A DNA stretch of 15,791 nt, from positions 1-15,791 of the forward strand of contig JBFXGD010000072.1 of assembly GCA_050178385.1 (NCBI GenBank). The letters are read 5' to 3'. Shown here one piece after another: positions 1 through 15,012 of the stretch. The stretch's first letter is position 1, and each line of letters starts with the position of its first letter. The notes beneath the pieces are model-generated. The model worked only from the letters and a program-made list of their open reading frames with translations, was not told the origin of the DNA and made no database searches. This DNA comes from Calditrichaceae bacterium. GTDB lineage: Bacteria; Calditrichota; Calditrichia; Calditrichales; JBFXGD01. Position numbers and translations under genes: made by a program.

Positions 1-22
1 CTTTTCTCTTAACGCTCTTTAA

Positions 23-130
23 TTCTTACTTCCTACTTCAAGCACAGCGTGCTGTACCTCTACTCTTTTTTCTTTTTTCTTTTATCTTTTATCTTAAACT
101 TCTTACTTCCTACTTCTCACTTCTTACTTA
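23..130. repeat. Pyrimidine-rich degenerate heptamer tandem repeats
   Basis: C recurs every 7 nt at 65,72,79,86,93 (CTTTTTT/CTTTTAT units) and at 102,109,116,123 (CTTACTT, CCTACTT, CTCACTT, CTTACTT). The 17-mer TTCTTACTTCCTACTTC occurs at both 23-39 and 100-116. Confidence 0.85.
42..63 (-). repeat. GTAG-type REP-like short palindrome (single, degenerate copy)
   Basis: The minus strand reads GTAG-AG-GTACAGC-AC-GCTGTGC: a GTAG tetranucleotide followed by an imperfect 7-bp palindrome with one G-T pair. Confidence 0.4.
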
Positions 131-140
131 TCTCCTCCCC

Positions 141-1391
141 CTACTCCCTGTTTTCCCTGATCAGCTTCTCTGCCAGTTTCTGCATATCCACGGCGGCCTC
201 TGCGGGTGTCACCCGGCCTGTAAAAATTCCCTGGTATGCCGGCCGCATCGCGTCCCATATCCAGCGCATTTCAGTAACCACAGGCATTGGTTTACCCACC
301 ATTAATTGAGTAATGGCATTCTGAATCAATGGATTATTGGTAACAAGAGTATCATCATAGGCGGATTGTACCGATGGAATGGAACCTCCCAGCCTGGTAA
401 ATTTTAATTCCACTTCTTTTGTTGTCAGAAATTTGATCAACTCGACCGTTGCCTCCAGTTTTTCACCCTGCAGATTTTTATTCAGGGAAAAACCCATCGG
501 CGAAACAAGAGGAGTCGGCCACAAACCGGTTTCATCAATTTTCGGAATATTTGCCAAACCGATATTGATTCCACTCTTCATATATGTTCCCCAGGACCAT
601 GGCCCGTTTATAATCATGGCAGAGATTCCGTCCTTGAACAGCGCGTTTGATAATTCGTAATCACATTCCTTTGGGATAATCTTGTATTTGTTCGCGAGAT
701 CATAGATTAACTGCGCCGCTTTAACAGTGGCATCTGTATTTAAGGTCGGATTATAGTCATCGTCAAAAATCCATCCTCCGTAACCGCCGATAAACGGTAC
801 GGCGAAGAAAGGTTCCGTATAATTCCAGGCCAGTGCATATCTGTCCGGCCGGCCGTCTCCGTCAAGATCCTTCGTCAGGGTTTTGCCAAGAGTTATAAGC
901 TCAGAAATGGTTTTTGGGGGTTCTTTTATAATGTCTTTATTATACACCAGACAGAGATGATTCCCGACTCGATCCGCTATTTGATACAGATGTCCGCGGA
1001 ACCAGGTATTTGCCTCCAATGGCTGACTTAAAAAACCGGATAGATATTCTTTGTCAAAATAAGGCTCCATCGGTTGTATCACACCGAGTTCGACAAGCGG
1101 CCCCACATTATCACTGGCGCCGTGCAGAACAGCCGGCCCTTTTCCGGCCAGAGCACTGATAATAAAATTTGTCCGTGCCTCCTCCGGCGCGTAAAAAAGC
1201 TGATTGAACTCAAATTGTGGATATCTTGTGGAAAACTCGCCTAACAGTTGATCCAAAAGATCTCTTTCCACAGGTCTTAACGATGACCAAACAACAATTC
1301 TTTCTTTTTTTTCTTCGCAACCCATTAATATTAAAAGGATTACAAAAAATATCATCGAAAATGTCAACTTTTTCAGTTTTTTTGACCACAT
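141..1391 (-). CDS. ABC-type sugar-binding lipoprotein, maltose/maltodextrin-binding (MalE/SBP family 1)-like
   Basis: 416-aa ORF with a basic N-terminus, hydrophobic stretch and lipobox LMGC. Carbohydrate-SBP motifs include IVVWSS, GKGPAV, LVYNKDII.EPPKT..EL, F..G..AMIINGPWSW, FLT and PMPVVTEMRWIWDAM, resembling MalE MP..PEM..VW. Confidence 0.88.
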   Translation of the reverse strand: MWSKKLKKLTFSMIFFVILLILMGCEEKKERIVVWSSLRPVERDLLDQLLGEFSTRYPQFEFNQLFYAPEEARTNFIISALAGKGPAVLHGASDNVGPLVELGVIQPMEPYFDKEYLSGFLSQPLEANTWFRGHLYQIADRVGNHLCLVYNKDIIKEPPKTISELITLGKTLTKDLDGDGRPDRYALAWNYTEPFFAVPFIGGYGGWIFDDDYNPTLNTDATVKAAQLIYDLANKYKIIPKECDYELSNALFKDGISAMIINGPWSWGTYMKSGINIGLANIPKIDETGLWPTPLVSPMGFSLNKNLQGEKLEATVELIKFLTTKEVELKFTRLGGSIPSVQSAYDDTLVTNNPLIQNAITQLMVGKPMPVVTEMRWIWDAMRPAYQGIFTGRVTPAEAAVDMQKLAEKLIRENRE

Positions 1392-1430
1392 GTGGATAAA
1401 TTGTTAATTGTTGTCATAATTTGTGGATAA
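1391..1430 (-). promoter_or_regulatory. Two perfect DnaA boxes (TTATCCACA)
   Basis: TGTGGATAA at 1391-1399 and 1422-1430 is the reverse complement of consensus TTATCCACA. Both lie in or at the edge of the 49-bp intergenic gap. Function is inferred only. Confidence 0.55.
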
Positions 1431-1440
1431 CTTTTTGTTT

Positions 1441-3255
1441 TTACTCATCTACGCTGACTTTCTGGCTCAAATGACGAAACCATGTGAAATAAAGGGTGGT
1501 AGATATGGCCACGAGCAAAACGAGTAAAACGCTCAGTTTTGTCCAATCCCTAACCAGCAGCATCATCCAAGATAAAAACAGAATTAACTGCCAGGGAACC
1601 GCTAAAAAGATTGAGAATATATCCCGTTTGTTTTCTTTTCTTATTTCTCCCAATTTTTGATCAGAAAGCTTTGCGCGAATATGTCCCCAAAATCCAAAAG
1701 GACGAGTCACTTTGTAAAAATTGAGAAGAACCGAATCGTTTGTCGCGGGAGTGGCATATGTCCCCACAATAACACCTAAAAGCGAAATTCCGCTTGCAAA
1801 AGCGAAGGAAATATATTCCGGAACTTCAGGAAACAATAATTTCTGGACAACCGCGGCAAGCATACCTGCTACAGTTCCAATGGCAAAGCCATATCCGTTT
1901 AACCGCCACCAGTACCACCGTATGAGCATGGGGATAATCATACCCGCGCCGATACTCATGGTAATCCAGCCCCAAATTTCATTTATATTTTTAACTAGCA
2001 GACTGAATCCTAATCCCAGAATTACGATAAGAATACTTGACCAGCGCGAATGCTGCATCAATTTTTTCTCAGAGGCGCCGGGATTAATATACGCCTGATA
2101 AATGTCTTTCACCCAATAGGCCGCGCCGGCATTAACCGTCGAATCGAATGTGGACATGGCTGCCGCCATCAAACCGGCCACAAGAAATCCTTTTACCCCT
2201 ATAGGCACAAGTTCATTTATCACCACGGGCAGCACTTTTTCCGGATCACCGATAACTGAATGAGTCGCGCCGTATCCAATACCCATCATGGCAATGGCGA
2301 TGATAAAGGGCCAGCGGAAAGACAGCAGAAACGTCCAGAACAGAGACAGCAGACCCGCTTCACGATCATCCTTCGCGGCAAAATACCGTTGGATCATATA
2401 ACCGGAAGTTCCACCGCTGCCTTCAATGGTTACTTTGATCAGGTAAAATAAAATAGCGAGACCAAACAGATTATAAATAGAATAGGCTGAGTTCGGATCA
2501 ATATTAAGCTGCCATTGGGGAATGATGTTCGTCCACGCGTCACGGGTCATTTCAAACGCCTGATAGCTGCCGTCTTTCATTGGCAGCGAAATCAGAAACG
2601 ATTCCGGAAGCGCGTATTTGGTGAAAGCGATAAATGAGACAATTACGATAGTACCAAAAATGATTGTCCCCTGAAATACATCTGTCCAGACAACACCATA
2701 CAGACCGGATGCCACTGTATAAATCATTGCCAAAACAATCATAAGCGTAGCGGCCCAGAATTCGGATGGCAAGCCAAGCATGGCCGGGATGCCGAGAAAT
2801 TCGCCGATAAACTTGCCTGAACCGACTGCAAAATATGTGATCATGGCGATCGTCACTATGATAACCGAAATAGCCGCAATCAAACGGGCCACGTGACCGT
2901 CCCTGGAATCACCGAATCGTAATTTCATCCACTCCGCAAGCGTCATGACATGCGCTCTTCTGTTCCATTTTCCCATAAAGATCATGAGAAAAGCCATAAT
3001 CAGCGTCACACCGCCGCGGATTTCGATAAAAAATCCGCTGATGCCGAGAGCATAAACCAGAGCTGTATTGATCATTGTACCGCTGACATCCAGGTTTGAC
3101 GACATCCCCGACGCGCCCAGCGCCCACCAGGGGATTCCTCTTCCTCCCAGAAAATAGGATTCGATGCTTCCTGACGCCTTGCGCTGGAAGTAGAAGCCTA
3201 TTCCAACCATCGTCAGCAGGTAAACGACGACTATTCCATAATCCAGAACGGACAT
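1441..3255 (-). CDS. Sodium:solute symporter (SSS/SLC5 family), probably sugar
   Basis: 604-aa, highly hydrophobic ORF. SSS motifs: LDY.IVVVYL, SYFLGGRGIPWWALGAS, T..E....RF, YT..SGL.GVVWTD.FQG, QRYFAAKD.REA, G.KG.LVAGLMAAAMSTFDS..N. RBS AGGAG at 3262-3266. Confidence 0.93.
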   Translation of the reverse strand: MSVLDYGIVVVYLLTMVGIGFYFQRKASGSIESYFLGGRGIPWWALGASGMSSNLDVSGTMINTALVYALGISGFFIEIRGGVTLIMAFLMIFMGKWNRRAHVMTLAEWMKLRFGDSRDGHVARLIAAISVIIVTIAMITYFAVGSGKFIGEFLGIPAMLGLPSEFWAATLMIVLAMIYTVASGLYGVVWTDVFQGTIIFGTIVIVSFIAFTKYALPESFLISLPMKDGSYQAFEMTRDAWTNIIPQWQLNIDPNSAYSIYNLFGLAILFYLIKVTIEGSGGTSGYMIQRYFAAKDDREAGLLSLFWTFLLSFRWPFIIAIAMMGIGYGATHSVIGDPEKVLPVVINELVPIGVKGFLVAGLMAAAMSTFDSTVNAGAAYWVKDIYQAYINPGASEKKLMQHSRWSSILIVILGLGFSLLVKNINEIWGWITMSIGAGMIIPMLIRWYWWRLNGYGFAIGTVAGMLAAVVQKLLFPEVPEYISFAFASGISLLGVIVGTYATPATNDSVLLNFYKVTRPFGFWGHIRAKLSDQKLGEIRKENKRDIFSIFLAVPWQLILFLSWMMLLVRDWTKLSVLLVLLVAISTTLYFTWFRHLSQKVSVDE

Positions 3256-3366
3256 ATACCACTCCTAATCGTTTGCGGATGAAATAAATGGGTATAATGA
3301 CGAATTTTTCAATTAACCGATCGCGCTTCGATTAAGCCAATCCGATAATTCAAAAATTCAAAACAT

Positions 3367-3405
3367 AAAAAACTGTGCCGGTCACCCCAGGGACGACCGG
3401 CACAG
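3367..3405 (-). terminator. Rho-independent terminator after the T9SS cargo gene
   Basis: Perfect 11-bp stem CTGTGCCGGTC (3373-3383) / GACCGGCACAG (3395-3405), followed on the minus strand by T6 (3367-3372). It begins about 30 nt after the stop at 3437. Confidence 0.9.
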
Positions 3406-3436
3406 AAAATCAGGATAGACTCGTTGAGGCTAGCCT

Positions 3437-5566
3437 TTATTTAATCATGATCATTTTTTTAATGGCTGTGAATTCGCCTGCTTCCAGTTTATAGAAATAA
3501 ACACCGGATGCCACTTTTTTGCCATTGTTATCCAGACCATTCCATTGATCAACATGAAGACCTGCAGTCGCATTGCCGTCAATCAATGTTCTTATTTTTT
3601 GTCCAAGTACGTTATAAATATCCAATCTTACCTTACCTGATTTAGCAAGAGTATAGGTAATCGTAGTCACAGGATTGAACGGATTTGGATAGTTCTGGTT
3701 GAGAGTGTACACCTTAGGTAATGTTCCCAGAATATCATCCCCGATAGCTGACGGCATCTGATTTGTATAATCCCATTCAGAATAAAACAGAGGATCGATG
3801 CTGCCGAACTGTGAATGGATAAAAGTTGTATCACCGCTCATATCGATATTCTCGACATGGTTATTTCCGTAACCGCCTTCGTTGTCGCCGCCGTGAATAC
3901 CGAATTTAAATTCCTGGCCAATTGTCGGAACCGGTACAGCTGAGGTCAAATAGGTAATCATCGCGGTATATATTGAATCTCCGGCAACTTCGTCGCCATG
4001 AGTTCCGTCATCATACATAGTGCGAGCCTCATTGTCATAGAGCGTTGTACCCCATGTTTCCCATCCGCCTGTTGCCGGGCCATTAATTCGGACACCGTAG
4101 GTGATCACATCTTCAGGATCGGTAATATGAAATGTGCTTTGGATATCTTCCAGTGTGCTGCCGCCAAATTTAACCTGATAAAATGCCGGGCGAACATCAC
4201 ATGTATAGACAACAGTAATATCTTTGTCAATCGGAGTTGTATTATTAAAAGTTGGTTTTCTCCTCAGACTTGCAATATCATCCACATTATCCTCGACCAG
4301 TACTTCAGCACCAGTCATCAGAAGTTTTCTTCTTTCAGCGGATGACCCGCCATCACTATCGGTAAAATCAAAGAAAATTTCCTTAAATTCCTGGCCGTTT
4401 TTAACCAGATAATAACTATACTGCAAATCGTTATCCAAAGAACTTACCACCGTATCAACAATCGCGTAAACAGATGAAATTCCCTGGCGGATCATTTTGC
4501 CGGATGTATAAACATTATCCGCTGTGGCATTCCAGCCGGACTTTACGACAACCGTGTCATTTGATGTAAATGCGTTATCGGCAATGGCTTTGCTCATATC
4601 GGCTTTGAATGTAACTACAACAGTGTCTTCATTCGGCCTAATGATTGGCTTCATATTGTCAAACCAGAACCATTGAATGGTCGTGTCTTCACCGGTCCAT
4701 ATAAAGGGTACCGCATCTTCCCGACTGGAATTATGGAACATCAAAGACCAGTCTTCATCAATGGAACCGGATACGGTATCATGAACTACCAATTTAAATT
4801 GTACTCCAGCGCTATCGTATTTTAACGGTACATGGATTGCGGCAGAATAGAAATTTGAGGCAATCTTGCCATCACCGGGTCCTTTTGTTAACAGATATGA
4901 TGGCCCCCAGCTTAATTCACCTGTTTGTCCCCAGTCTGACATATTCGATCCGCGAACACCAACGGCATGACGGGATGGATCAAACTCTTCAAATCCCATC
5001 ATATTTACACGCACATAGAACACAAATGATGAATCATTTGTGGTGTACGGTTTAGCATATTGACCGGGTTTCTGCATAGACCAGCCATTAACAAACTGCA
5101 AGTCCAGAACGGTATCCGTTCCAGCGAAGCCTGACAGATCAAGAGTCCGGTTAGTAGTTTTTGCTTCTCCACCAGCTACCGGATCCGGACCCTCTGCAAC
5201 ATCGTTCTCCCAGCCGGTATGTTCCCATTCATCCCCGGATGCGACTGTACTGTGATAATTTGTAAAAAACTTGTACTTTAAGGCTGATCCTGCCGGTACC
5301 GCAAAAGTACCTTCCCAGTAATCACCGCCAACATTCTGCAAATACATGGTTGTATTCGCGTTCCAGGCAATCTCGACACCGGAAGATAACACATCAATAT
5401 TATTATCATCAGTATCGCTTGTTCCTCTGATCTGAACAAGACTTGTTGCCCCAAGTGTGTCGGGAACGGCGGCCACATTGGCCCGGAATGTGACATTAAC
5501 AGTCTGTGCACTCAGAAGAGCCGTTAACATCAGCAGTACAAAAACAGTAGAAAATGTACGCTTCAT
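3437..5566 (-). CDS. Secreted T9SS type-A cargo with four tandem CBM20-like (starch-binding-like) beta-sandwich modules
   Basis: Start moved to ATG 5566 (MKRTFS..., RBS GGAGGA at 5571-5576); signal peptide ends LSA|Q. Four modules share the pattern VTF.(V/A)(N/D)...V.(I/V)RG...W...(L/M)...(W/Y)....YKF. The C-terminus L.QNYPNPFNP.T.I.Y...IYNVLGQ.I..L...W.G.D..G..VASGVYFYKL.....KKM..IK is a classic T9SS type-A/FlgD-Ig domain. The CBM20 call is by pattern only. Confidence 0.8.
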   Translation of the reverse strand: MKRTFSTVFVLLMLTALLSAQTVNVTFRANVAAVPDTLGATSLVQIRGTSDTDDNNIDVLSSGVEIAWNANTTMYLQNVGGDYWEGTFAVPAGSALKYKFFTNYHSTVASGDEWEHTGWENDVAEGPDPVAGGEAKTTNRTLDLSGFAGTDTVLDLQFVNGWSMQKPGQYAKPYTTNDSSFVFYVRVNMMGFEEFDPSRHAVGVRGSNMSDWGQTGELSWGPSYLLTKGPGDGKIASNFYSAAIHVPLKYDSAGVQFKLVVHDTVSGSIDEDWSLMFHNSSREDAVPFIWTGEDTTIQWFWFDNMKPIIRPNEDTVVVTFKADMSKAIADNAFTSNDTVVVKSGWNATADNVYTSGKMIRQGISSVYAIVDTVVSSLDNDLQYSYYLVKNGQEFKEIFFDFTDSDGGSSAERRKLLMTGAEVLVEDNVDDIASLRRKPTFNNTTPIDKDITVVYTCDVRPAFYQVKFGGSTLEDIQSTFHITDPEDVITYGVRINGPATGGWETWGTTLYDNEARTMYDDGTHGDEVAGDSIYTAMITYLTSAVPVPTIGQEFKFGIHGGDNEGGYGNNHVENIDMSGDTTFIHSQFGSIDPLFYSEWDYTNQMPSAIGDDILGTLPKVYTLNQNYPNPFNPVTTITYTLAKSGKVRLDIYNVLGQKIRTLIDGNATAGLHVDQWNGLDNNGKKVASGVYFYKLEAGEFTAIKKMIMIK

Positions 5567-5600
5567 GAAGTCCTCCAATTAGTTATGGTTTAGTGGTTTG

Positions 5601-6623
5601 TTAGAACGCAATTGATAATGCAAACGTTTGTATATCATCCAGAATCCCGTAAGTTGCAAATGCGTAGTCCAGGGAAACCTGCCCAATCCCCGCCATGCGA
5701 TATTGCAATCCGGCCCCGAATGTCAATCCCTCCTCCGTATCTTCCTGAAACAAGGATTTATAACCGGCCCTTAACGCAACCATGTTTTTCCAGCTATATT
5801 CCGCTCCGACATTTACCGATTCCACATTATCCGTCGGATGCAAAGCGTCAGCGGCCAAAGTTACGCGGTTCATTTCCGTATTTATTAAATCATATGCCAC
5901 CCCGATCCTGAAAAAAATCGGGAGGGGATAATCATCAGTCTTGAGTCTCGCGACAAGCGTTTCATTGTTGCCGCTGTTTTCCGGATCCATATCGATTTGT
6001 CTTAAAAGATCATCCCCATCCATCCTCATTTCTGTTCCATAGTTCGAGATGCTCATACCCAGACGCATGTCATTAAAACCGGTGACAAACAATAAGCCAA
6101 CATCCACAGCGACCGCGCTTGCCGATTCGTTCCAAATATTTTGTCCAATGTATTTTAAACTACCGCCTAATGAGAAACGATCCGTCAATGCTCTGGAATA
6201 ACTTATTGACGCGGAAATATCCTGGGCATCCCAATATCTTCCGGTACCCTCTTGCTCAGTAGTCGTTGTGATTTCTTCTTCACCATAATCCAGCTGTGTT
6301 AAGCTGAAGGCAACAGCATTTCCGCTGCCAAGGTTAAATGTGGCTCCTATCCAGTTAAAATCAGTTCCAAGAAACCATGTGGTATGTGAAATCATTACTT
6401 GATTTTCACTAATATTGGCAATGGCTCCGGGATTCCAGTAAGCGGCGGTCACATCGTTTGCTAACGCCACATAAGCTCCTCCCATTGCCTGAGCTCGTGG
6501 GCCGACGGCAATGCCAAGAAACGGTGCCGCGGTTGTACCGACCTTATTCTGGGCGAAGCCAAAACTTAATATCAAAAATTGTATTACTATTGCCAGAACA
6601 AGCGATCTAAATTTAAATTTCAT
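5601..6623 (-). CDS. PorV/PorQ-family (UPF0164-like) outer-membrane beta-barrel
   Basis: Start likely ATG 6623 (RBS GAGGT at 6629-6633), with a signal peptide. PorV-family N-terminal signature GTTAAPFL.I.VGPRA.AMGGAYVALAND..A.YWNPGA, amphipathic beta-strands (SVNVGAEY, VALRAGY, LTFGAGL, SLDYAF) and a C-terminal Phe. Confidence 0.88.
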   Translation of the reverse strand: MKFKFRSLVLAIVIQFLILSFGFAQNKVGTTAAPFLGIAVGPRAQAMGGAYVALANDVTAAYWNPGAIANISENQVMISHTTWFLGTDFNWIGATFNLGSGNAVAFSLTQLDYGEEEITTTTEQEGTGRYWDAQDISASISYSRALTDRFSLGGSLKYIGQNIWNESASAVAVDVGLLFVTGFNDMRLGMSISNYGTEMRMDGDDLLRQIDMDPENSGNNETLVARLKTDDYPLPIFFRIGVAYDLINTEMNRVTLAADALHPTDNVESVNVGAEYSWKNMVALRAGYKSLFQEDTEEGLTFGAGLQYRMAGIGQVSLDYAFATYGILDDIQTFALSIAF

Positions 6624-6699
6624 CTTCAACCTCAACTCAATTTATCCAATTGGTCACCTTAAAGGTCATCATTTTCTGATAGACAATCATTTATAATTC

Positions 6700-9600
6700 T
6701 TATTTAATAATGGCCAGTTTACCTCGTTTTTCACCTATTGGGGATTCCACAACATAGAAGTAAACCCCATAAGCGATATCAAGATTTTCTTTGTTTTTGA
6801 GATTCCAATCAGCCGTGCCGTTAAATGAACTTTGACTATCCGGATTTATCGTCACAACATGCTCACCGCGGGCAGTAAAGATTGTTATTTTGGAACCTGT
6901 CGGTAAATGTGTGAACGTGACTTTTCTTTCCCCGCGTCCGCTGGTAATCAGCGGCGGCAGCGGCGCTTCATGTTCATGCGCTACAACATACGGATTTGGA
7001 ACTACTTTTATCTGACTCAATTCCGCTTTTGCCTTAACGACATCTATCACCGGCTTCTCCGCTGTAAAGGTAAACTTATCTCCCGTCCGGAATGGAAGCG
7101 TGGAATTGAGCGCTAATTCAACACCGGTACCCGTCGTCATTAATGTCGTGCTCGGCTGACCTTTTATCGCGCCAATTTCCAGGAGATAGGTAAAATAATT
7201 TTTACTTTCAGGACCGGCTTCGAAGAAAAGGAGTAAGTCTTTTGGGCTTAGTTTATAAAATCCTTCGGGAGAAATTGAAGGACTAAACGGACCATATACA
7301 TACTCTACCTGCTTGTTTAGCGTTGTATTCATGATTTTAAAGTTCATCGGATAACTCTGTAGATTTACACCGAATACGGTTGTATCCAACGAATTATAGA
7401 CGACTGAGTCTGAAAATATCAGCTTGAAATTATGGGGTGTTCTTCTTCCGATCAGGTCCGGTTTCGCGTCACCGGTAAAATCGATTCCTTCCGCTCCAAG
7501 AGTAAAAGTATAGGCCTGCGGCACATTCCATCCTGATTGTGAAGCAATAAGATTAATGGCTGAATAATTTATAAAGGACAGTTGAACACCATCAAAAATG
7601 TCCGTATCAAAAACGACTTCATCGGCCTGATCCGTCTGAATTTCTCCGATATTTACACTTTTAAAAACCGGATAATACTGGTATTCAATAATATAATTTG
7701 TGTTTGGCGCCATTTCGGAGTTCGGATCATCCGGATTTGGACGAATTTCACCAGAGGCATATTTAATTTCATATGCGATGGGGCTGAGCACCGTGCCATC
7801 CATCTTTTTGATCACAATCGATTCAGGAGCCAGATTTTGCCTGCTCAACTCCACAAAGATTGTGTCATCAACGAATACTTCTTCCGAATAATCACTCATA
7901 TCTCTTACAGTATAGTAGGATGTTTTTACAGGCCAGAATTCATCCGGGTCATTTTTATCCATTCTGGGTTCATTTGAATCCGGCTTTCCATTCCCGTTCA
8001 GATCATCCGTTAAGATATTCCAGTCTCCGTCATTATCCAGTCCATCTGTACTTGTGTCAAGGAACTCAACCATATATGAATTATTATTAAGTGCTTTTTC
8101 ATCAACAACCATATATGAAACTTTTCCATTGGAAGGACCTGCGAGATGATCAAGATCCCCTTCCATTGATGGCGCCGTATACCCAGCGACATTAGTTCCC
8201 GGCGTTACTTTTACAGTATTCTGCCCTGTTTCAACTATTCCGCTTGGGAGAACTGTCACCAAAAAAGGGCTTTCAGACGGGAAAATGTCTCTCTCTGCTT
8301 CCCCTCTGTCATAGGCTGTCAATGCATAATAATAGCTACGGCCGTTTTCCACATCCGTATCAATGTAATAGTGTCTTAATCCGGTATCACTTCCCAGATT
8401 CCAGGAATATCCGTTAGCGCTATTCATTAAATCGGCAGAACCGACAAAAATCCCTTTGATGTCATTGACCAGATCCCATTGCTGGATAGGTTTGTAACCG
8501 CGTGCTCTTCCATCTGCATCCGTGACAGTGAACGCGTCCTCAAAATTGGCATCCGTCGATTTATAAAGTCGGTACCCTTCAAAATCATATTCTCTTAGCA
8601 CCGGATCAAATGAAGATTCCGATATTCTGTCCCAATACAATACAACTTTACCATCACCGACTTCTACACTCAGATTTGGTGTATCAGGTTCCTTCGGGAA
8701 CTGATAGTTTGAATCATATATCTCTTGGACCGTAGTGCGGTTTTTCAGGAGGCTCTCCTTATCCGCATCACGCCCCCCTAAACCGCCGCCATAAACCAGA
8801 GCAAGTGAGAATCGTTCTGTTCTCTTTGCAAGCAGGGGAAAGTAACCGCTGGCATAAAAAAAGTCACCGTCTTCGCCCTGAACCGGTTCATTGTTTACGA
8901 TTGAACTTGGCACATCAAAATCACCGGGTTCAACTCTTGTCCACCAGACTTCATCATCTGTCAGAAGAGTTGTAGGAGCCTGTGCATTTGTAAAATAATC
9001 AAAGCTGGTTAGTCCTATCTGATCAGATTCCCTAACATCAGTTATATCAATATTTGGCTCACCGGGCAATCCTGTACCGGTGCCTGATGTCGGAATTCCA
9101 TCATTTTCACCACGATCTCCCGTATCGGCGACCCCGTCTAAGCCCACATCGTCAGTTTCGGAATTCCAGTCATCATTATTATCAATGCCGTCACTCCGTG
9201 ATTCGTCGATCATGTTGTCATTCATGCCCTGGCCGGATTTGTAGTTAACAAAACGTAACGGCCGTAATTTATCGATCAATATTTGGCCAGTTGCAGGATC
9301 CTGTCTTCTTTGGCGATAATGTAAGAAATAATTCTCATCAATCAGTCCGTCCAGATCATTATCAATTCCATCAATCGCGTTTCGGTTTACGATCTGGCGA
9401 TTATTTTTGTCCAGAACCACATTGCCTTCCACAAGCTTTGTAACACCGGGAATAATATGGAAACTCTTACCCATGCTGACTAAGGTTGTCTCTGCCGTGA
9501 TTGTAACTAACGTCCGATTAAAGTTTTTATCAATAAGAACAACCTTATCATTCAGCTTAATAAGAATGCTGTCGAAATCAGCAGGCGCAAAAAACGATGC

Positions 9601-10602
9601 ATTTGTGAAGACACCATTTTGATCCGCATCATTATCATTATCTATACCGTCAAAAGCATTCCCCGGACTTTCAAGAAAAGCATATCCAACCATTCCGACA
9701 GGCCCGTCCCACAGTGGATTCCGGACATTGTTATCCGGAAAATCTCCTGTGTATGTTATATCGAGTTCCGCATCAAAGAACGACCAGTCATCGTCATATT
9801 CCTTTACGTCTTCAGTTGATGTCACACCGATATAAGTACCCACCAGCATTCCGAATGTTGTCTTATTATAATCGGTCGTCCCCTCATTGGTGATTTCATA
9901 CAACCAAAAAATACAGTCTTGGGCAAGAAATTGCCGCCATTGCAGCGCTCTAACCTTCATTTCCAGCGCCATCCCGCTCCTTGCTGTATTTAAGGAATCC
10001 GGTTTAAAATCAAACCTGTATTTATTATTCGCGGCAAAGTTAAATTCCGCATCCGCATTATCGTCCATGGCGAAATAGGTTTCCTCCGTGGCATTAGATA
10101 TGCCCTTTCCAAAGTAACCGTTCCACTTACCGGACCAACCCGGGTCGACGACATCATCCATACGATCAGGCCACTGCTGAGGCCAGGTAGATGGATTAGT
10201 AAACAAAGCCACTGCCGGGCCTTCTTTTGTTTCATCAAAATAGCCTCTTTTGGGTTCAAAGCCCCAGAAATCACCGGTTGATGAATTTTCCTGACGATTC
10301 GGCCGTTTATCGGCCAGGCAGTAAGTTACCGAATGAAAATAGAAGGTACTGTCCGGATTGACTTTATAAGGGATTTCGGCACCCACAAATGGGCTTACAT
10401 CACCAAGATAGCCGTTATTATCGTTCAGCCATGCGCCGCGGGGACCTTTATCAACCGGGTGTCCAATTACACCACCGTTTGTATATACTGTACTAACCAG
10501 ATTCTTATTCATAATATTATACCGGCGATACTGCTTTCCGCTCTGCGCCCAAAGATCTGTGAGCATCAGAATTATGAACAGAAATACCGTAATTTTTCTC
10601 AT
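6700..10602 (-). CDS. Large secreted protein of unknown function with Asp-rich Ca-binding-type motifs, an FN3 domain and a variant T9SS C-terminal domain
   Basis: 1300 aa, signal peptide (..LWA|Q), RBS GAGGA at 10611-10615. Repeated DG(I/L)DN(D/N) motifs. FN3 pattern P..P.L....GDGKVVLYWD...FEGYRLYKS...YIDTDVENGRSYYYALTAYD. C-terminus IKVVPNPY...I.IFT..GE.V..I...W.L.......AYGVYFY.VE......GKLAIIK. Confidence 0.8.
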   Translation of the reverse strand: MRKITVFLFIILMLTDLWAQSGKQYRRYNIMNKNLVSTVYTNGGVIGHPVDKGPRGAWLNDNNGYLGDVSPFVGAEIPYKVNPDSTFYFHSVTYCLADKRPNRQENSSTGDFWGFEPKRGYFDETKEGPAVALFTNPSTWPQQWPDRMDDVVDPGWSGKWNGYFGKGISNATEETYFAMDDNADAEFNFAANNKYRFDFKPDSLNTARSGMALEMKVRALQWRQFLAQDCIFWLYEITNEGTTDYNKTTFGMLVGTYIGVTSTEDVKEYDDDWSFFDAELDITYTGDFPDNNVRNPLWDGPVGMVGYAFLESPGNAFDGIDNDNDADQNGVFTNASFFAPADFDSILIKLNDKVVLIDKNFNRTLVTITAETTLVSMGKSFHIIPGVTKLVEGNVVLDKNNRQIVNRNAIDGIDNDLDGLIDENYFLHYRQRRQDPATGQILIDKLRPLRFVNYKSGQGMNDNMIDESRSDGIDNNDDWNSETDDVGLDGVADTGDRGENDGIPTSGTGTGLPGEPNIDITDVRESDQIGLTSFDYFTNAQAPTTLLTDDEVWWTRVEPGDFDVPSSIVNNEPVQGEDGDFFYASGYFPLLAKRTERFSLALVYGGGLGGRDADKESLLKNRTTVQEIYDSNYQFPKEPDTPNLSVEVGDGKVVLYWDRISESSFDPVLREYDFEGYRLYKSTDANFEDAFTVTDADGRARGYKPIQQWDLVNDIKGIFVGSADLMNSANGYSWNLGSDTGLRHYYIDTDVENGRSYYYALTAYDRGEAERDIFPSESPFLVTVLPSGIVETGQNTVKVTPGTNVAGYTAPSMEGDLDHLAGPSNGKVSYMVVDEKALNNNSYMVEFLDTSTDGLDNDGDWNILTDDLNGNGKPDSNEPRMDKNDPDEFWPVKTSYYTVRDMSDYSEEVFVDDTIFVELSRQNLAPESIVIKKMDGTVLSPIAYEIKYASGEIRPNPDDPNSEMAPNTNYIIEYQYYPVFKSVNIGEIQTDQADEVVFDTDIFDGVQLSFINYSAINLIASQSGWNVPQAYTFTLGAEGIDFTGDAKPDLIGRRTPHNFKLIFSDSVVYNSLDTTVFGVNLQSYPMNFKIMNTTLNKQVEYVYGPFSPSISPEGFYKLSPKDLLLFFEAGPESKNYFTYLLEIGAIKGQPSTTLMTTGTGVELALNSTLPFRTGDKFTFTAEKPVIDVVKAKAELSQIKVVPNPYVVAHEHEAPLPPLITSGRGERKVTFTHLPTGSKITIFTARGEHVVTINPDSQSSFNGTADWNLKNKENLDIAYGVYFYVVESPIGEKRGKLAIIK

Positions 10603-10629
10603 TATTACATTCCTCGTCTTAAATCTTCC

Positions 10630-13404
10630 CTAAAAATTGAAAGTTAAACCAAACTCAACTCTTCGCGGTTCGTTATAATGTGTCTCATCGGTAAACCAAT
10701 CTTCCAATGAATTTACGACCGTACCATCACTTCCAAGCGTTTCCCCTGCAGTGACTTCATCTATCGTCTGACCAGCCCTACCAGTATCATCGTATACTTC
10801 AATTTCGTTAAGCTGATCAAGAAGATTAAAGACACGCAAAAATGCCGTGAAACGATAATCGCTTATTGTAAAATCTTTATATGCCTTCAGATCTATATTA
10901 TAGGTGGCCGGTTTTGTGCCATTGTTTGTTGAAATCGAGGAGATATCAACCGTTTTTCTCGGTGTGTATGGTAATCCGCTTCCATACTGACCAATAAAAC
11001 TAACTCCCCAGCTCTGTTTTGAGTAGTTAACGGATGCGTTTATGGTATGTCGCTGATCCCAATCCAATGGCTTCAACTGCACTTCCGGCTCACTATTGCC
11101 TTCTATAAGCTTATACGCATCCTGCGGGTCCGATGCTGTTCCATCTGCGATCTGATACGTATAATCAAGTCGAGCGCTGAGTCCGGCGGAGAATCTCTTG
11201 TTAAAAGCAACAATAAATCCTTTTATCAAGCCAAAATCACTGTTTACATATTTACTGTATGTCTGCCCAGTGCCGAAGACTGTAATTTGTTCAGCAGTAG
11301 TTCCGGTCAGGTCACGAACATCACGAAAGAAAATTGTGGCATCTACCGTAATATCATCTGTAATTTGCTGCTGAATGCCGATTTCTCCCTGAATCGTCTT
11401 TTCCGGTTCAAGATCCGCATTACCAACAACCGCGGAGCCTCCGATTGGCAAATCATAATCAGGATTTGTATATAACAGCTCATATTTAGGGCGCTGGAAA
11501 AAATAGCCGTAGGAAAAATATACTTTTCCGCCCTCAGACACAGGGAATGCAGCCCCAATTCGCGGGCTGACCTGAAACTTCGCATCTGCGTCTTTGTACC
11601 AGTAAGATCTTCTTTCCTCTACGGTTACATTTGGCTCACCCGCGTCCTGAACTCCGTTCCCGTTCAGATCATGATAACGGTTCTCAGGGCGAACCGGATC
11701 ATAAAGTTCGGGATCCGTAGGATCCGCGAGTACCTGGCCATCGGGATCAAAGTAATCAAAACGAACACCTATATTGAGAATAAAGTCTTTAAACTCCATC
11801 TTATCCTGAAGATAAAAAGACGCGTCAACCGGCTTATAATCATAGCGCGCCGCATATATTGAACTGTCAGCGGGAATTTTCGTTCTGATGTAAGGTGAAC
11901 TCAGATATTTATCAAACGACAAATCTTCATTGACCGGCTGAAGTGTAATATCCTGGAATTTTAAATGATCATTTCTGTATTCTAACCCTGCTTTTATCTG
12001 GTGCGTGCGTGAGACCTGGCTTGTTATATCGAATTTCGTTAATACAGAATATGTTTCCCTTTTGAAACGACTGTTATTTGTTCCTCCGGTTTTAAAACTA
12101 TATGCCAGCTGAGAGCCAAGATCCGGGTGAACATATCGGGAATCATAGGGATCTTCATAAGCATAGTGCTTGTATTCTTTCATAAAATATGTCACACCCA
12201 GATCATAAAATGTTGTGGGTGCCAGGGTGTGTGTCATCTTAAACATCTGTGTGAACCCGGTACGGTATCGATTGAGATCACCCCCGGGATTATATTTATA
12301 ATTCCGGTCATAATCCCGATAATCAACCTGATCATAAATGGTATTTGACAGCAAATTAATTGTGGACATGGGCTTGAAAATAAATTTTGCCTGCGCGTAA
12401 TTTTTCCTGTTCCAGTTCATTGGAACATAATCACCTTCACCTTTTCCGGAGTCATCCCTGTTTGGTATCCAGGTACCTGTCGTATCATCAAAAAACGAGA
12501 CATTATTTGGATCATAGACATCTTTCCCCTCATTCCAGCCATGGAAATAGATGTGGCGGGCATTCACATAATAAAAAACCTTGTCCTTCACCAATGCGCC
12601 ATTTAAACTTCCTTCAAAATTATAGGTTGAGGCGGGATTGAAATCGCTGATATTCATAAAAACATCATCATGAGAGCTAAGATTGTCTCCTATATATGCG
12701 GTCATGCTTCCGCCAAAATCGTTAGAGCCTCCCTTTGTTACAACATTGACTATACCGCTCATCGCATTGCCATATTCCGCGTTAAAAGCCCCGCTTACTA
12801 CCTGAAGTTCCTGCACCATATTTTTATTAACATCGACAACCGTTTCCCCGTCATATGAATCCGTAACTGGGATACCGTCAATCCAGTATGCGACTTCTCC
12901 GGATCGTCCGCCACGCATATGCCCGTCAACGTAACCCGCCTGAAGTTCAAGAATTTCGTTGATTTCAGTAACCGGCAAAGCATCGATTTCTTTGTCTCCG
13001 ACGACGGATGTTGTAGCGGTGAGATCTTTTTTGATAGCCGGACGCTCAGCCACCACTGTAACCATTTCAGTTGCTTCAAGAGTCGTCTCCGACAACTTAA
13101 CATCTATTTTTGTCGTTAAATCTATCGAAACACGGATGTCTGAAATTTCCTTCGTGTTATAGCCTATATACATCGCCTGAATCGTATAAACACCCGGCGG
13201 GATATTTAAAATAGCGTAGTATCCGTCTAAATCCGTTGAAGCGCCCATTGTTGTGCCCACAATGACAATGTTGGCACCTATCAGCGGATCGCCTGTGTTT
13301 TCATCCAGTATTTGACCGGAAATCTTACCTGTTGTTCCGGCAAAAGTGTTTATAGCTGATATAAACAAAAAACCTATAACAAAGAGTAAAATACCCCTTC
13401 GCAT
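10630..13404 (-). CDS. TonB-dependent receptor with N-terminal carboxypeptidase-regulatory-like domain (not SusC type)
   Basis: Start moved to ATG 13404 (MRRGILLF..., RBS AGGAGG at 13411-13416). N-domain GKISGQILDENTGDPLIGANI...GASTDLDGYY.ILNIPPG.Y; TonB-box-like EMVTVVAE; plug RGGRSGEVAYWIDG...SGAFNAEYGNAMSGIVNVVTK; barrel motifs QVSPRIG, GNADLEPEKT, DWDQRHTIN, VFNLLD; C-terminal RVEFGLTFNF. Confidence 0.93.
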   Translation of the reverse strand: MRRGILLFVIGFLFISAINTFAGTTGKISGQILDENTGDPLIGANIVIVGTTMGASTDLDGYYAILNIPPGVYTIQAMYIGYNTKEISDIRVSIDLTTKIDVKLSETTLEATEMVTVVAERPAIKKDLTATTSVVGDKEIDALPVTEINEILELQAGYVDGHMRGGRSGEVAYWIDGIPVTDSYDGETVVDVNKNMVQELQVVSGAFNAEYGNAMSGIVNVVTKGGSNDFGGSMTAYIGDNLSSHDDVFMNISDFNPASTYNFEGSLNGALVKDKVFYYVNARHIYFHGWNEGKDVYDPNNVSFFDDTTGTWIPNRDDSGKGEGDYVPMNWNRKNYAQAKFIFKPMSTINLLSNTIYDQVDYRDYDRNYKYNPGGDLNRYRTGFTQMFKMTHTLAPTTFYDLGVTYFMKEYKHYAYEDPYDSRYVHPDLGSQLAYSFKTGGTNNSRFKRETYSVLTKFDITSQVSRTHQIKAGLEYRNDHLKFQDITLQPVNEDLSFDKYLSSPYIRTKIPADSSIYAARYDYKPVDASFYLQDKMEFKDFILNIGVRFDYFDPDGQVLADPTDPELYDPVRPENRYHDLNGNGVQDAGEPNVTVEERRSYWYKDADAKFQVSPRIGAAFPVSEGGKVYFSYGYFFQRPKYELLYTNPDYDLPIGGSAVVGNADLEPEKTIQGEIGIQQQITDDITVDATIFFRDVRDLTGTTAEQITVFGTGQTYSKYVNSDFGLIKGFIVAFNKRFSAGLSARLDYTYQIADGTASDPQDAYKLIEGNSEPEVQLKPLDWDQRHTINASVNYSKQSWGVSFIGQYGSGLPYTPRKTVDISSISTNNGTKPATYNIDLKAYKDFTISDYRFTAFLRVFNLLDQLNEIEVYDDTGRAGQTIDEVTAGETLGSDGTVVNSLEDWFTDETHYNEPRRVEFGLTFNF

Positions 13405-13482
13405 TACATTCCTCCTTAAACTATCGGAAAAGAATTCATCAATTTCATTATTTGCATCTGGCACCGATTGGGCTTTACCCCA

Positions 13483-15012
13483 TCAGTTAATCTCATACCG
13501 CCTAAACAATGAATCCATTTTTTTCTGCCATAATGGCAATCCTATCAGAGGCTCCAGGCGGGGTGAAACCAACCGATTGGCAAAATGTGATTTTCTTACA
13601 ACCATATCCAATTTATTCAATGAAACGGTGTCATAAACCGCTTTGTTAATCAAAATTTTATAATTCTCCGCATAAGATGTCAACTTCGCGTCAAAATACT
13701 CAAGACGCTTTTCTTCGATAGCTTGATTTTCGGGCTGCAGATTATTCGACGTAATATTTGAATCTAATTCTTTAAGCAGATCATACCGGAATGAGTTGGC
13801 CTGGTAATAGGATTTCCACATTAAGAATTCATCCCGCACCAGCTTATTTTGTTCATAACCATTTTTATTAGCCAGCTTATAGACGGCTTCATGCTCCATC
13901 AGTAATCTGACATTCTGAATAAAAGAGTTTATAAATGATTCCCTGTTGCTGAAATCAAATGCGTAAGGTCCATATTTTAACTGAACCATTAATTCCTGAA
14001 AAGTCCAGGTTGATCCATCAGGAAAATTAACCGCCGTATTATTTTTTAAATCATTTAAAATTGTTTGCCGGTTCAGATAGATATTCTCGGGCAGAGGCTT
14101 ATACTCAATCGGACCGGTTTGCACAGGGTCATTTTTACTGAATTCTATTTCATCAGAGACTAATTTGGCAGCTGTTTTCAGATTTTCCCACTCAACATTA
14201 CCCGATTCTTTCAGGATAGTACGCTGATACACTGCTCTGTATTGTTTTTTGATTTTGTTTCGAAGGATGCGGTCTTCTAAGGCGGGAAGTCTATTTTTAT
14301 AATCAGCTTGAGATTGTTTACCGATTATTTTTATATCATCAATCTTTATAAGATAGTATTCACCGTGAGCTTTGATAACATTGCTGATTTCATCATATTT
14401 AAGTTTATATATTTTTTCTTCCAGATCATAATCTTCATTTGCCCATTGAATCTTTTTAGAAGGAATTGATTCAGCGCTCCATCCCCTGTTTTTCATATAG
14501 TCTCTTACAGCGGCTTCGAAGGAGATTCCTGAATCGATTTTTGACTTGACTTCCAATGCGGCATTTAGCGAATCGAAAGCGATATAACGAATATCTATTT
14601 CCCGAAGCGATTTTTGATATTCATGCTGAAGCTCCGCATCCGAAATCTCAATCCTGCTTTCAACCGAGTCACGGCGGAATTGTTCGATCATAGCTTCTCT
14701 CAAATGTTGTCGAATCAACAGATTGACATTTTCATTCACTCTGGATTTTTCTTCATTCTCCAAACTGAGAATTTTTTCAGCGATCAGCGATGACAGGACT
14801 ATTTTTTTTGCAATATTGATATCAGTTATGGTCCGCAGATATGGGTTATAGTTAAGCCGGTCCTGAAATTCAGTTGTGGTAATTCCCAAATTGTTGATCT
14901 GTGCGATATTCTCTTTGTTGTCAGCTGAGCCGCAACCCGCAACAGTAATCGTAAACATTAAATAGAAAAGGATGAACGGGAACTTAATTCGATCTAATAG
15001 TAACAATTTCAT
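13483..15012 (-). CDS. PrsA/SurA-like foldase lipoprotein with a degenerate PpiC (parvulin) domain
   Basis: 509 aa, lipobox VAGC. SurA-like N-terminus (IAQINN..IT..EF...SLIAEKIL, ISDAEL..EY) and parvulin-like segment IRYIAFDS...A......I..G.SFE.....EEKIYKLK.DEISNVIK....YYLIKI. Confidence 0.75.
   Translation of the reverse strand: MKLLLLDRIKFPFILFYLMFTITVAGCGSADNKENIAQINNLGITTTEFQDRLNYNPYLRTITDINIAKKIVLSSLIAEKILSLENEEKSRVNENVNLLIRQHLREAMIEQFRRDSVESRIEISDAELQHEYQKSLREIDIRYIAFDSLNAALEVKSKIDSGISFEAAVRDYMKNRGWSAESIPSKKIQWANEDYDLEEKIYKLKYDEISNVIKAHGEYYLIKIDDIKIIGKQSQADYKNRLPALEDRILRNKIKKQYRAVYQRTILKESGNVEWENLKTAAKLVSDEIEFSKNDPVQTGPIEYKPLPENIYLNRQTILNDLKNNTAVNFPDGSTWTFQELMVQLKYGPYAFDFSNRESFINSFIQNVRLLMEHEAVYKLANKNGYEQNKLVRDEFLMWKSYYQANSFRYDLLKELDSNITSNNLQPENQAIEEKRLEYFDAKLTSYAENYKILINKAVYDTVSLNKLDMVVRKSHFANRLVSPRLEPLIGLPLWQKKMDSLFRRYEIN

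Follow-up and report, generated by a model that had tools for sequence, protein, structure and literature searches.

We analyzed a window of 15,791 bases, which is the entire contig C72 (JBFXGD010000072.1) of a 3.9-Mb, 94% complete genome from a Calditrichaceae bacterium. An ORF check placed seven open reading frames (ORFs) on it at the coordinates of an earlier sequence-only reading, all on the minus strand and separated, from foldase to substrate-binding protein, by short gaps of 18, 27, 64, 22, 181 and 49 bases. The element that concerns us here consists of three adjacent genes, encoding a TonB-dependent transporter (TBDR), a protein of about 1300 amino acids (the giant) and an outer-membrane barrel of the PorV/PorQ family, which together we call the triad. 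The sequence-only reading had treated all seven genes as one locus. That locus is real in this genome, but the conserved unit is the triad alone, and the foldase, the cargo protein with carbohydrate-binding modules (CBMs), the symporter and the substrate-binding protein are variable extras. Our favored interpretation, which we hold with moderate confidence, is that the triad is a conserved unit in which the giant is likely exported through a type IX secretion system (T9SS), is likely held by an uncleaved tail on a barrel of its own, and likely serves as the importer's surface partner for starch-type oligosaccharides. The triad genes and the parts of the giant are as follows.

10630..13464, minus strand: TBDR with an N-terminal extension, not of the SusC family by profile matches, triad gene 1; its start is more likely the ATG at 13404, which is preceded by AGGAGG
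6700..10602, minus strand: giant, 1300 amino acids, triad gene 2, with a signal peptide-like N-terminus, no early Cys and an atypical T9SS-type C-terminal domain (CTD)
8695..10542, minus strand: giant residues 21-636, predicted discontinuous beta-supersandwich and linker helix (residues ~21-315 and ~529-636) with an inserted arm
within 8695..10542, minus strand: giant residues ~316-528, the inserted arm, with acidic Dx[DN]xDG-type loops, from model and conservation
8167..8694, minus strand: giant residues ~637-812, conserved all-beta domain whose likeness to FN3 comes from weak Foldseek matches only
6700..7020, minus strand: giant CTD, residues ~1195-1300, of a VPNPY...GKxAIIK class unlike type A tails, outside the structure model
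5601..6635, minus strand: PorV/PorQ-family outer-membrane barrel of a triad-specific clade, by profile and tree, triad gene 3

Conservation of the triad was examined in 80 stretches of at most 20 kb around strong matches to the giant, picked by score and contig span and not at random, of which 60 came from the phylum (Calditrichota) and 20 from elsewhere. All three genes were adjacent in 76 of the 80. By ORF calls the order was TBDR-giant-barrel in 70 stretches and TBDR-barrel-giant in 4, and 2 more were confirmed by tblastn. None of the remaining four contradicts the triad, two of them ending at a contig edge after TBDR and giant and two being halves of one split locus. The recurrence of TBDR, large-protein and barrel genes side by side, which the sequence-only reading had mentioned, is borne out. 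In one genome the triad is split inside the giant gene, with the halves at two distant places (L051 and L052). The remaining genes of the window are less constant: a homologue of the CBM cargo was found in 48/80 stretches and a PPIase-type gene in 48/80 (40/60 and 8/20), while the sodium:solute symporter (SSS) and the substrate-binding protein (SBP) occurred in 22/60 and 21/60 phylum loci, respectively, and neither was found in the other 20, counts that are all lowered by incomplete stretches. A conserved unit of seven genes was rejected on the basis of the SSS and SBP counts. One locus at 65% identity does retain all seven genes in the same order, and a relative genome encodes a giant homologue with 96% identity.

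Giant matches were found in 85 of 86 phylum genomes and in 113 of 251 genomes of a Bacteroidota-side draw, made from the phylum to which a Rhodothermales record belongs, and named homologues came from KSB1, Ignavibacteria, Marinimicrobia, Gemmatimonadota and WOR-3 records. We compared divergence across the three genes in 63 intact triads, after 11 of 74 had been dropped for length. The nearest relative of the giant ranked in the top three by TBDR in 60 of these triads, and by barrel in 58. Because the nearest relatives agree across the three genes, and because triad paralogues within one genome are only 32-49% identical, the triads look like old units that are inherited whole. The source genome itself has four giant genes, each followed by a barrel gene, with two cut upstream by contig ends.

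Several relatives of the triad were seen alongside. The source genome holds a distant second triad subfamily (C12:35530-43133, L115, and C210:1-3137, L117; hhalign 99.9%, 18% identity), whose barrels branch apart from the main barrel clade. At four related loci there is a compact module in which a TBDR is followed by a protein of 676-702 aa, which carries a giant-type tail, and then by a PorV-like barrel; the compact proteins (L081:1465-3573, L085:2481-4511, L088:1065-3143 and L089:1627-3693) show a weak collinear likeness to the giant core, with an hhalign probability of only 26. Six long giant homologues (P0218, P0220, P0222, P0230, P0243 and P0249) carry a propeller of the two-component-regulator type before the tail. 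A search for fusions among proteins of 2276-5000 aa gave none at E 1e-10, which is weak evidence.

The transporter of the triad begins with a CarboxypepD-type N-terminal extension followed by the plug. The SusC model TIGR04056 scored 68 bits on it, against a cut-off of 368, and covered the N-terminal part only. The SusC plug motif as written in the sequence-only reading is absent from this TBDR, and the pattern KD[AS]..[AS][IVL]YG occurred in 0 of 74 related triad TBDRs. Three SusD models (PF07980, PF14322 and PF12771) matched no protein of the window or of the 94%-complete genome, while the Bacteroides thetaiotaomicron control was positive every time. Both absences that had been noted from the letters, that of a SusD next to the TBDR and that of a SusC plug signature, were thus upheld.

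The giant itself matched no family profile apart from a weak C-terminal T9SS-signal match, and no glycoside hydrolase (GH) family. A PDB sequence search returned 0 matches, and an ESM Atlas search gave only unnamed clusters among 30 matches. Its N-terminus is hydrophobic, and no lipobox-like Cys was found in 69 giants. We modeled residues 21-1200 with AlphaFold2 from an alignment of 62 rows, obtaining an almost all-beta model with a predicted local distance difference test score (pLDDT) of 87.7 and a predicted template modeling score (pTM) of 0.77. Structural alignment with VIA-align superposed its discontinuous core onto the N-terminal beta-supersandwich found in GH94-like, GH15, GH116 and GH65 proteins at Z 16-19 over ~230-290 residues (best match Z 18.8, root mean square deviation 3.3, 258 aligned residues), at 4-11% identity and with large insertions. 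The N-terminal domains of GH94, GH15, GH65 and GH116 enzymes are non-catalytic. The giant resembles them in its predicted core fold and in the helix that follows, but the catalytic (alpha/alpha)6 helical barrel of GH94, GH15 and GH65 is absent from the model of residues 21-1200. Lesser matches at Z 12-13 were to mutarotase-like proteins, lyases and a GH174 enzyme. Foldseek with the whole giant and the whole CBM cargo models, including giant residues ~813-1185 and the fourth cargo domain, gave generic Ig/FN3 strings only, at template modeling scores of ~0.1. Median identity among giants was highest in the acidic loops (0.66), followed by the tail (0.50), the FN3-like domain (0.47) and the distal part (0.24), and many acidic and aromatic residues are invariant.

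If the giant were a surface enzyme of a new family, its supersandwich would cut or modify polymer beside the importer, as SusG does. The invariant acidic and aromatic residues and the matches at Z 12-13 could be read in this way. The best matches, however, are to the non-catalytic N-terminal domains, the helical barrel is missing, and a single family stands among unrelated substrate genes with dedicated hydrolases encoded alongside, so that we judge an enzymatic giant quite improbable. The giant might instead be a scaffold that is anchored by the barrel and brings CBM cargo and enzymes together close to the importer, neither capping the TBDR nor binding substrate. Its multi-domain build, the long and variable distal part, the conserved acidic loops, the frequency of the CBM-cargo homologue and the service of one core family to different substrates would all suit a scaffold. 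We nevertheless regard this as unlikely, since the triad persists with no detectable CBM cargo in 32/80 stretches (some of them incomplete), the compact relatives retain the TBDR and barrel context, and the supersandwich fold is typical of carbohydrate-active proteins. A surface partner of the importer remains the reading that we prefer.

The barrel gene scored 233.6 bits with the PorV/PorQ-family model NF033709 (cut-off 90) and fell below the equivalog cut-offs of both PorV (98 vs 250) and PorQ (109 vs 220). Eleven PorV-family genes of the source genome exceeded the family cut-off, and there is one true PorV elsewhere (273 bits, cut-off 250); an identification of the triad barrel as the housekeeping PorV was rejected for this reason. 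A quick tree was built from 51 rows, 38 of them from even-numbered loci and 13 from source-genome genes. In it, 40 triad barrels formed one clade apart from true PorV with an SH-aLRT support of 98, in agreement with the earlier proposal of a locus-specific PorV paralog. The giant tail scored 17 bits with CHU_C (E 0.006, cut-off 27) and 13.9 with TIGR04183 (cut-off 23). The 53 CTD-type tails of the source genome were then sorted with profiles of two kinds, one made from the tails of giants and the other from type A tails, a ranking that is circular for the giants themselves. A PorV-family gene flanks 9 of the 14 most atypical tails versus 1 of the 39 others, that one being the CBM cargo of the window, and 9 of 12 PorV-family genes in the genome flank an atypical-tail protein. 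This pattern fits one private barrel per atypical cargo, by analogy with the PorQ-PorZ and PorP/SprF pairs. The sequence-only reading had assigned the T9SS cargos of the locus to the private barrel; the atypical tail of the giant fits that assignment, but the CBM cargo, with its ordinary type A tail, does not. Two further arrangements in the source genome involve such barrels. C47:7092-21934 encodes a CTD protein of >4300 aa and, after it, a PorV-family barrel of 644 aa that carries a long extension at its C-terminus. C49:714-6715 encodes a second PorU-like protein, which is 1664 aa long and scores below cut-off, together with a PorV-family gene of its own.

The same data bear on the possibility that the barrel is a transient PorV-like shuttle for the giant or the CBM cargo, after which the giant undergoes processing by PorU or is released and acts apart from the TBDR. 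The barrel does belong to the same family as PorV, PorU is present, cognate shuttles are described for type B cargo in the relevant part of PMC12618676, and the part of PMC11285876 that deals with tails names no feature known to separate cleaved from uncleaved ones. We consider a shuttle distinctly unlikely, given that a true PorV is encoded elsewhere, that TBDR, giant and barrel co-diverge, and that the cargo tail is an ordinary type A tail. Retention of the giant on its barrel is the interpretation that we carry forward.

The rest of the locus consists of the following features.

13483..15012, minus strand: PrsA/SurA-like peptidyl-prolyl isomerase (PPIase) lipoprotein, 509 aa, with PPIase profiles below cut-offs and Cys27; a frequent accessory gene
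3437..5578, minus strand: 713-aa type A CTD cargo with three predicted CBM20/CBM26-like modules, a fourth domain with a choice-of-anchor X motif, and the CTD
3373..3405, minus strand: terminator-like hairpin, 15 pairs (10 G-C) and a T run, 3' of the CBM cargo gene
1441..3255, minus strand: SSS, 604 aa, by profile matches
141..1391, minus strand: sugar ABC substrate-binding lipoprotein (SBP), MalE-like below cut-off, Cys25
1..127: exact end overlap with contig C191, where the locus goes on with two ABC permeases, a CBM-esterase, TrmB and GH13

The hairpin at 3405-3373 sits between the five outer-membrane genes and the SSS/SBP pair and may end a five-gene outer-membrane block, although the hairpin count of the whole scan was at chance level. 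With this separation, the seven genes may not share a single transcript; a promoter scan was at chance level (39 vs 38.9). Calcium-loop-like Dx[DN]x[DN]G motifs are common to several proteins of the locus, at residue 599 of the TBDR, residues 325, 414 and 867 of the giant and residue 175 of the SBP.

The 713-aa cargo scored 43.2 bits with TIGR04183 (cut-off 23), which marks a type A sorting domain. In its model (pLDDT 90.6), the tail matches PorU at Z 10.2 and PorZ at Z 8.9, and three modules match CBM20, CBM26 and CBM41 structures at a modest Z 7.7-9.6, with CBM20 folds at Z 8.4-9.6. The CBM20 parts named by the sequence-only reading are thus predicted as starch-binding-type modules by the model and by homologues, PF00686 (CBM20) being found on 27 among the 120 cargo homologues listed, but the Pfam CBM20 match on the cargo itself reaches only E 0.04 (14 bits, cut-off 23.3). 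These predicted modules and homologues support a SusE/F-like role. The likeness of the SBP to MalE fared similarly: the MalE model NF007011 is its best NCBIfam match, but at 152.9 bits against a cut-off of 291.

The locus had been drawn within the window, and its genes are indeed there, but it runs on past the window. The overlap of bases 1-127 with C191 was the sole such end overlap among six contigs tested, and on C191 lie genes for two ABC permeases, for an esterase that has a weak glycogen-binding match, for TrmB and for GH13. With its last, incomplete ORF, C191 may hold the beginning of the CTD-bearing amylase-like gene seen on C266; no contig overlap was found. Since C191 carries GH13, TrmB and permeases, and since close homologous loci carry GH13, GH57, GH77 and TrmB or LacI genes, an alpha-glucan substrate for this copy is well supported by gene context. 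The starch, glycogen or maltodextrin substrate proposed earlier therefore stands for the window copy, but it does not extend to the triad in general. Neighbors of other copies include GH66, GH53, GH2, GH97, GH94, GH26/GH130, a peptide ABC system and amidases, and the notion of a starch-specific module was rejected. In L071 the triad is followed by a peptide-type ABC system, a CN hydrolase and an aminotransferase, neighbors that suggest a non-glycan substrate. A paralogous triad on C232 of the source genome is followed by an SSS and may extend to C278 and C134, which carry GH66 dextranase-like genes, an arrangement paralleled in L048 and L049. A GDSL-like/TPR protein, at times with a carbamoyltransferase gene, recurs beside triads (L060, L061, L094, L096, L111 and others; a 17-member cluster). 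The spacer after the SBP gene (L001:20470-21290) contains a dispersed intergenic repeat that matches ~30 contigs of the source genome and may explain the contig breaks.

With these co-located carbohydrate-active enzymes, binding proteins and a regulator for one glycan (GH13, TrmB and permeases on C191, CBM-like modules in the window), the locus has a defining trait of a polysaccharide utilization locus (PUL). It lacks the SusC-family transporter and the adjacent SusD by which a SusC/SusD PUL is recognized. The triad works like a PUL core, yet it lies outside the SusC/SusD class.

The source genome encodes SprA, PorU, PorV and TonB, so that core T9SS genes are present as the sequence-only reading expected, and its 53 CTD-type tails include those of amylase- and dextranase-like proteins. 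SprA was found in 83 of 86 phylum genomes. As described in part of PMC11285876, T9SS may occur in other phyla of the Fibrobacterota-Chlorobiota-Bacteroidota (FCB) group, and the tails of PorU and PorZ are uncleaved. The giant is very probably secreted through SprA. It would then probably be collected and held by its cognate barrel with the tail uncleaved, as PorZ is by PorQ, becoming the surface partner of the TBDR. A lid is one form that this partnership might take: whether the N-terminal supersandwich docks over the mouth of the TBDR in this way we regard as evenly balanced. The type A CBM cargo and the GH13 enzymes would take the ordinary PorV/PorU route and would bind and cut the polymer, the resulting oligosaccharides would pass through the TBDR to the ABC and SSS transporters, and the PPIase would aid folding of the unit.

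Several observations weigh against this picture. On the side of secretion, GldM was not found in the source genome and exceeded the cut-off in 0 of 86 phylum genomes (divergent homologues are possible, and GldK and GldN were not searched), and GldL exceeded it in 0 of 35 phylum genomes in a search without positive control. Because no GldL or GldM is recognizable, a point that the sequence-only reading had not anticipated, export of the giant is inferred from an incomplete list of the known T9SS parts. On the Bacteroidota side GldM was over cut-off in 61 of 251 genomes, none of them among the 113 with a giant, four of which had weak partial matches; this non-overlap is probably a lineage pattern and not independent evidence. 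As for the barrel, support for a group of all triad barrels that includes the distant C12/C210 pair was only 63 in the quick tree, and because two CTD proteins flank the barrel, its client is assigned from tail class only. An extra giant copy (L098) lacks a neighboring TBDR or barrel, and ordinary type A cargo encoded at a distance from TBDRs (C293 and C141) contains sequence weakly like the giant core. Linkage and co-inheritance do not show physical contact, and a shared supersandwich fold shows no function. Finally, SusD-like matches occur in 31 of 86 phylum genomes at 1-3 per genome, and triad and SusD systems can therefore coexist. The idea that the triad excludes SusD was rejected, given that 85 of the same 86 genomes have a giant, and the implied role of the triad as a strict alternative to SusD falls with it.

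The lack of a recognizable GldL/GldM motor and a giant tail below the curated T9SS cut-offs would also be expected if the giant were not exported at all, acting as a periplasmic receiver for the TBDR whose tail only docks it to the barrel. The presence of SprA across nearly the whole phylum, the many CTD-type tails, some of them on amylase- and dextranase-like proteins, and acidic loops of a kind that would be typical of extracellular proteins make this highly improbable. We therefore retain an exported giant at the cell surface.

Each principle in this proposal has a precedent. As in SusC/SusD PULs such as the B. thetaiotaomicron Sus, the gene of an N-extended TBDR is immediately followed by that of a conserved partner, and genes close by encode starch-binding surface proteins, GH13 enzymes, regulators and inner-membrane transporters. 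Unlike them, the triad TBDR is not of the SusC family, the partner is a beta-rich protein of 1,000-1,300 aa with no lipobox where SusD is a helical lipoprotein, and a third gene, for the barrel, is always present. PorZ is a beta-propeller protein. The pairing of a PorV-family barrel with a single cargo protein, the tail of which fits neither typical type A nor type B, recalls PorQ-PorZ of the Porphyromonas gingivalis T9SS attachment complex, as presented in part of PMC10947112. There, PorZ works in secretion itself, whereas the triad cargo has a supersandwich, is tied to a nutrient importer and has several paralogues per genome, and the triad barrel lies below the PorQ cut-off. PorP/SprF-like barrels and their type B cargo, in the relevant parts of PMC9143113 and PMC12618676, likewise show side-by-side cargo and barrel genes, specific pairing and non-covalent surface anchoring, but the triad barrel is of the PorV/PorQ family, the giant tail is below the CHU_C cut-off, and those parts of the accounts draw no link to a TBDR. 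In the portion of bioRxiv 2023.03.17.533168 on non-SusD lids of Bacteroides transporters, a non-SusC transporter has an adjacent conserved partner proposed as a lid; those lids are lipoproteins, where the triad partner instead carries a tail of the T9SS type and is matched with a private barrel. By printed order alone, Table 1 of PMC6987092 gives a similar arrangement in the xylan locus of Rhodothermus marinus (Rmar_1070-1073: a TBDR, a hypothetical protein with a Por tail, a hypothetical secreted protein and a hypothetical protein with a Por tail). These are hypothetical proteins only, the xylan locus also has a SusC/SusD pair, and homology to the triad is a lead. A full-text literature search, whose scope left out most subscription papers and all supplements, found no description of the triad, and the combination appears undescribed.

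More tentatively, we suggest that the triad may represent a third design of outer-membrane importer, with a lid that derives from a GH supersandwich, leaves the cell by T9SS and is retained by a private PorV-family barrel in place of lipid. It could serve Calditrichota and other non-Bacteroidia FCB lineages as their standard core for uptake, working with a T9SS that has SprA, PorV and PorU and no recognizable GldLM, so that both uptake and secretion would differ from the Bacteroidia models. Because PUL prediction relies on SusC/SusD pairs, the glycan loci of Calditrichota and related lineages are easily missed, and the triad offers a marker for them. It ties type IX secretion directly to transporter architecture and extends the pairing of cognate barrel and cargo to many PorV paralogues, and the data from the phylum point to a T9SS that works without the known motor. 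Cultured hosts are at hand in C. abyssi, which grows on starch according to part of PMC5317091, and in R. marinus, with its locus of like printed layout (Table 1 of PMC6987092). The triad thereby gives a testable model of sugar import by sediment and marine polymer degraders.

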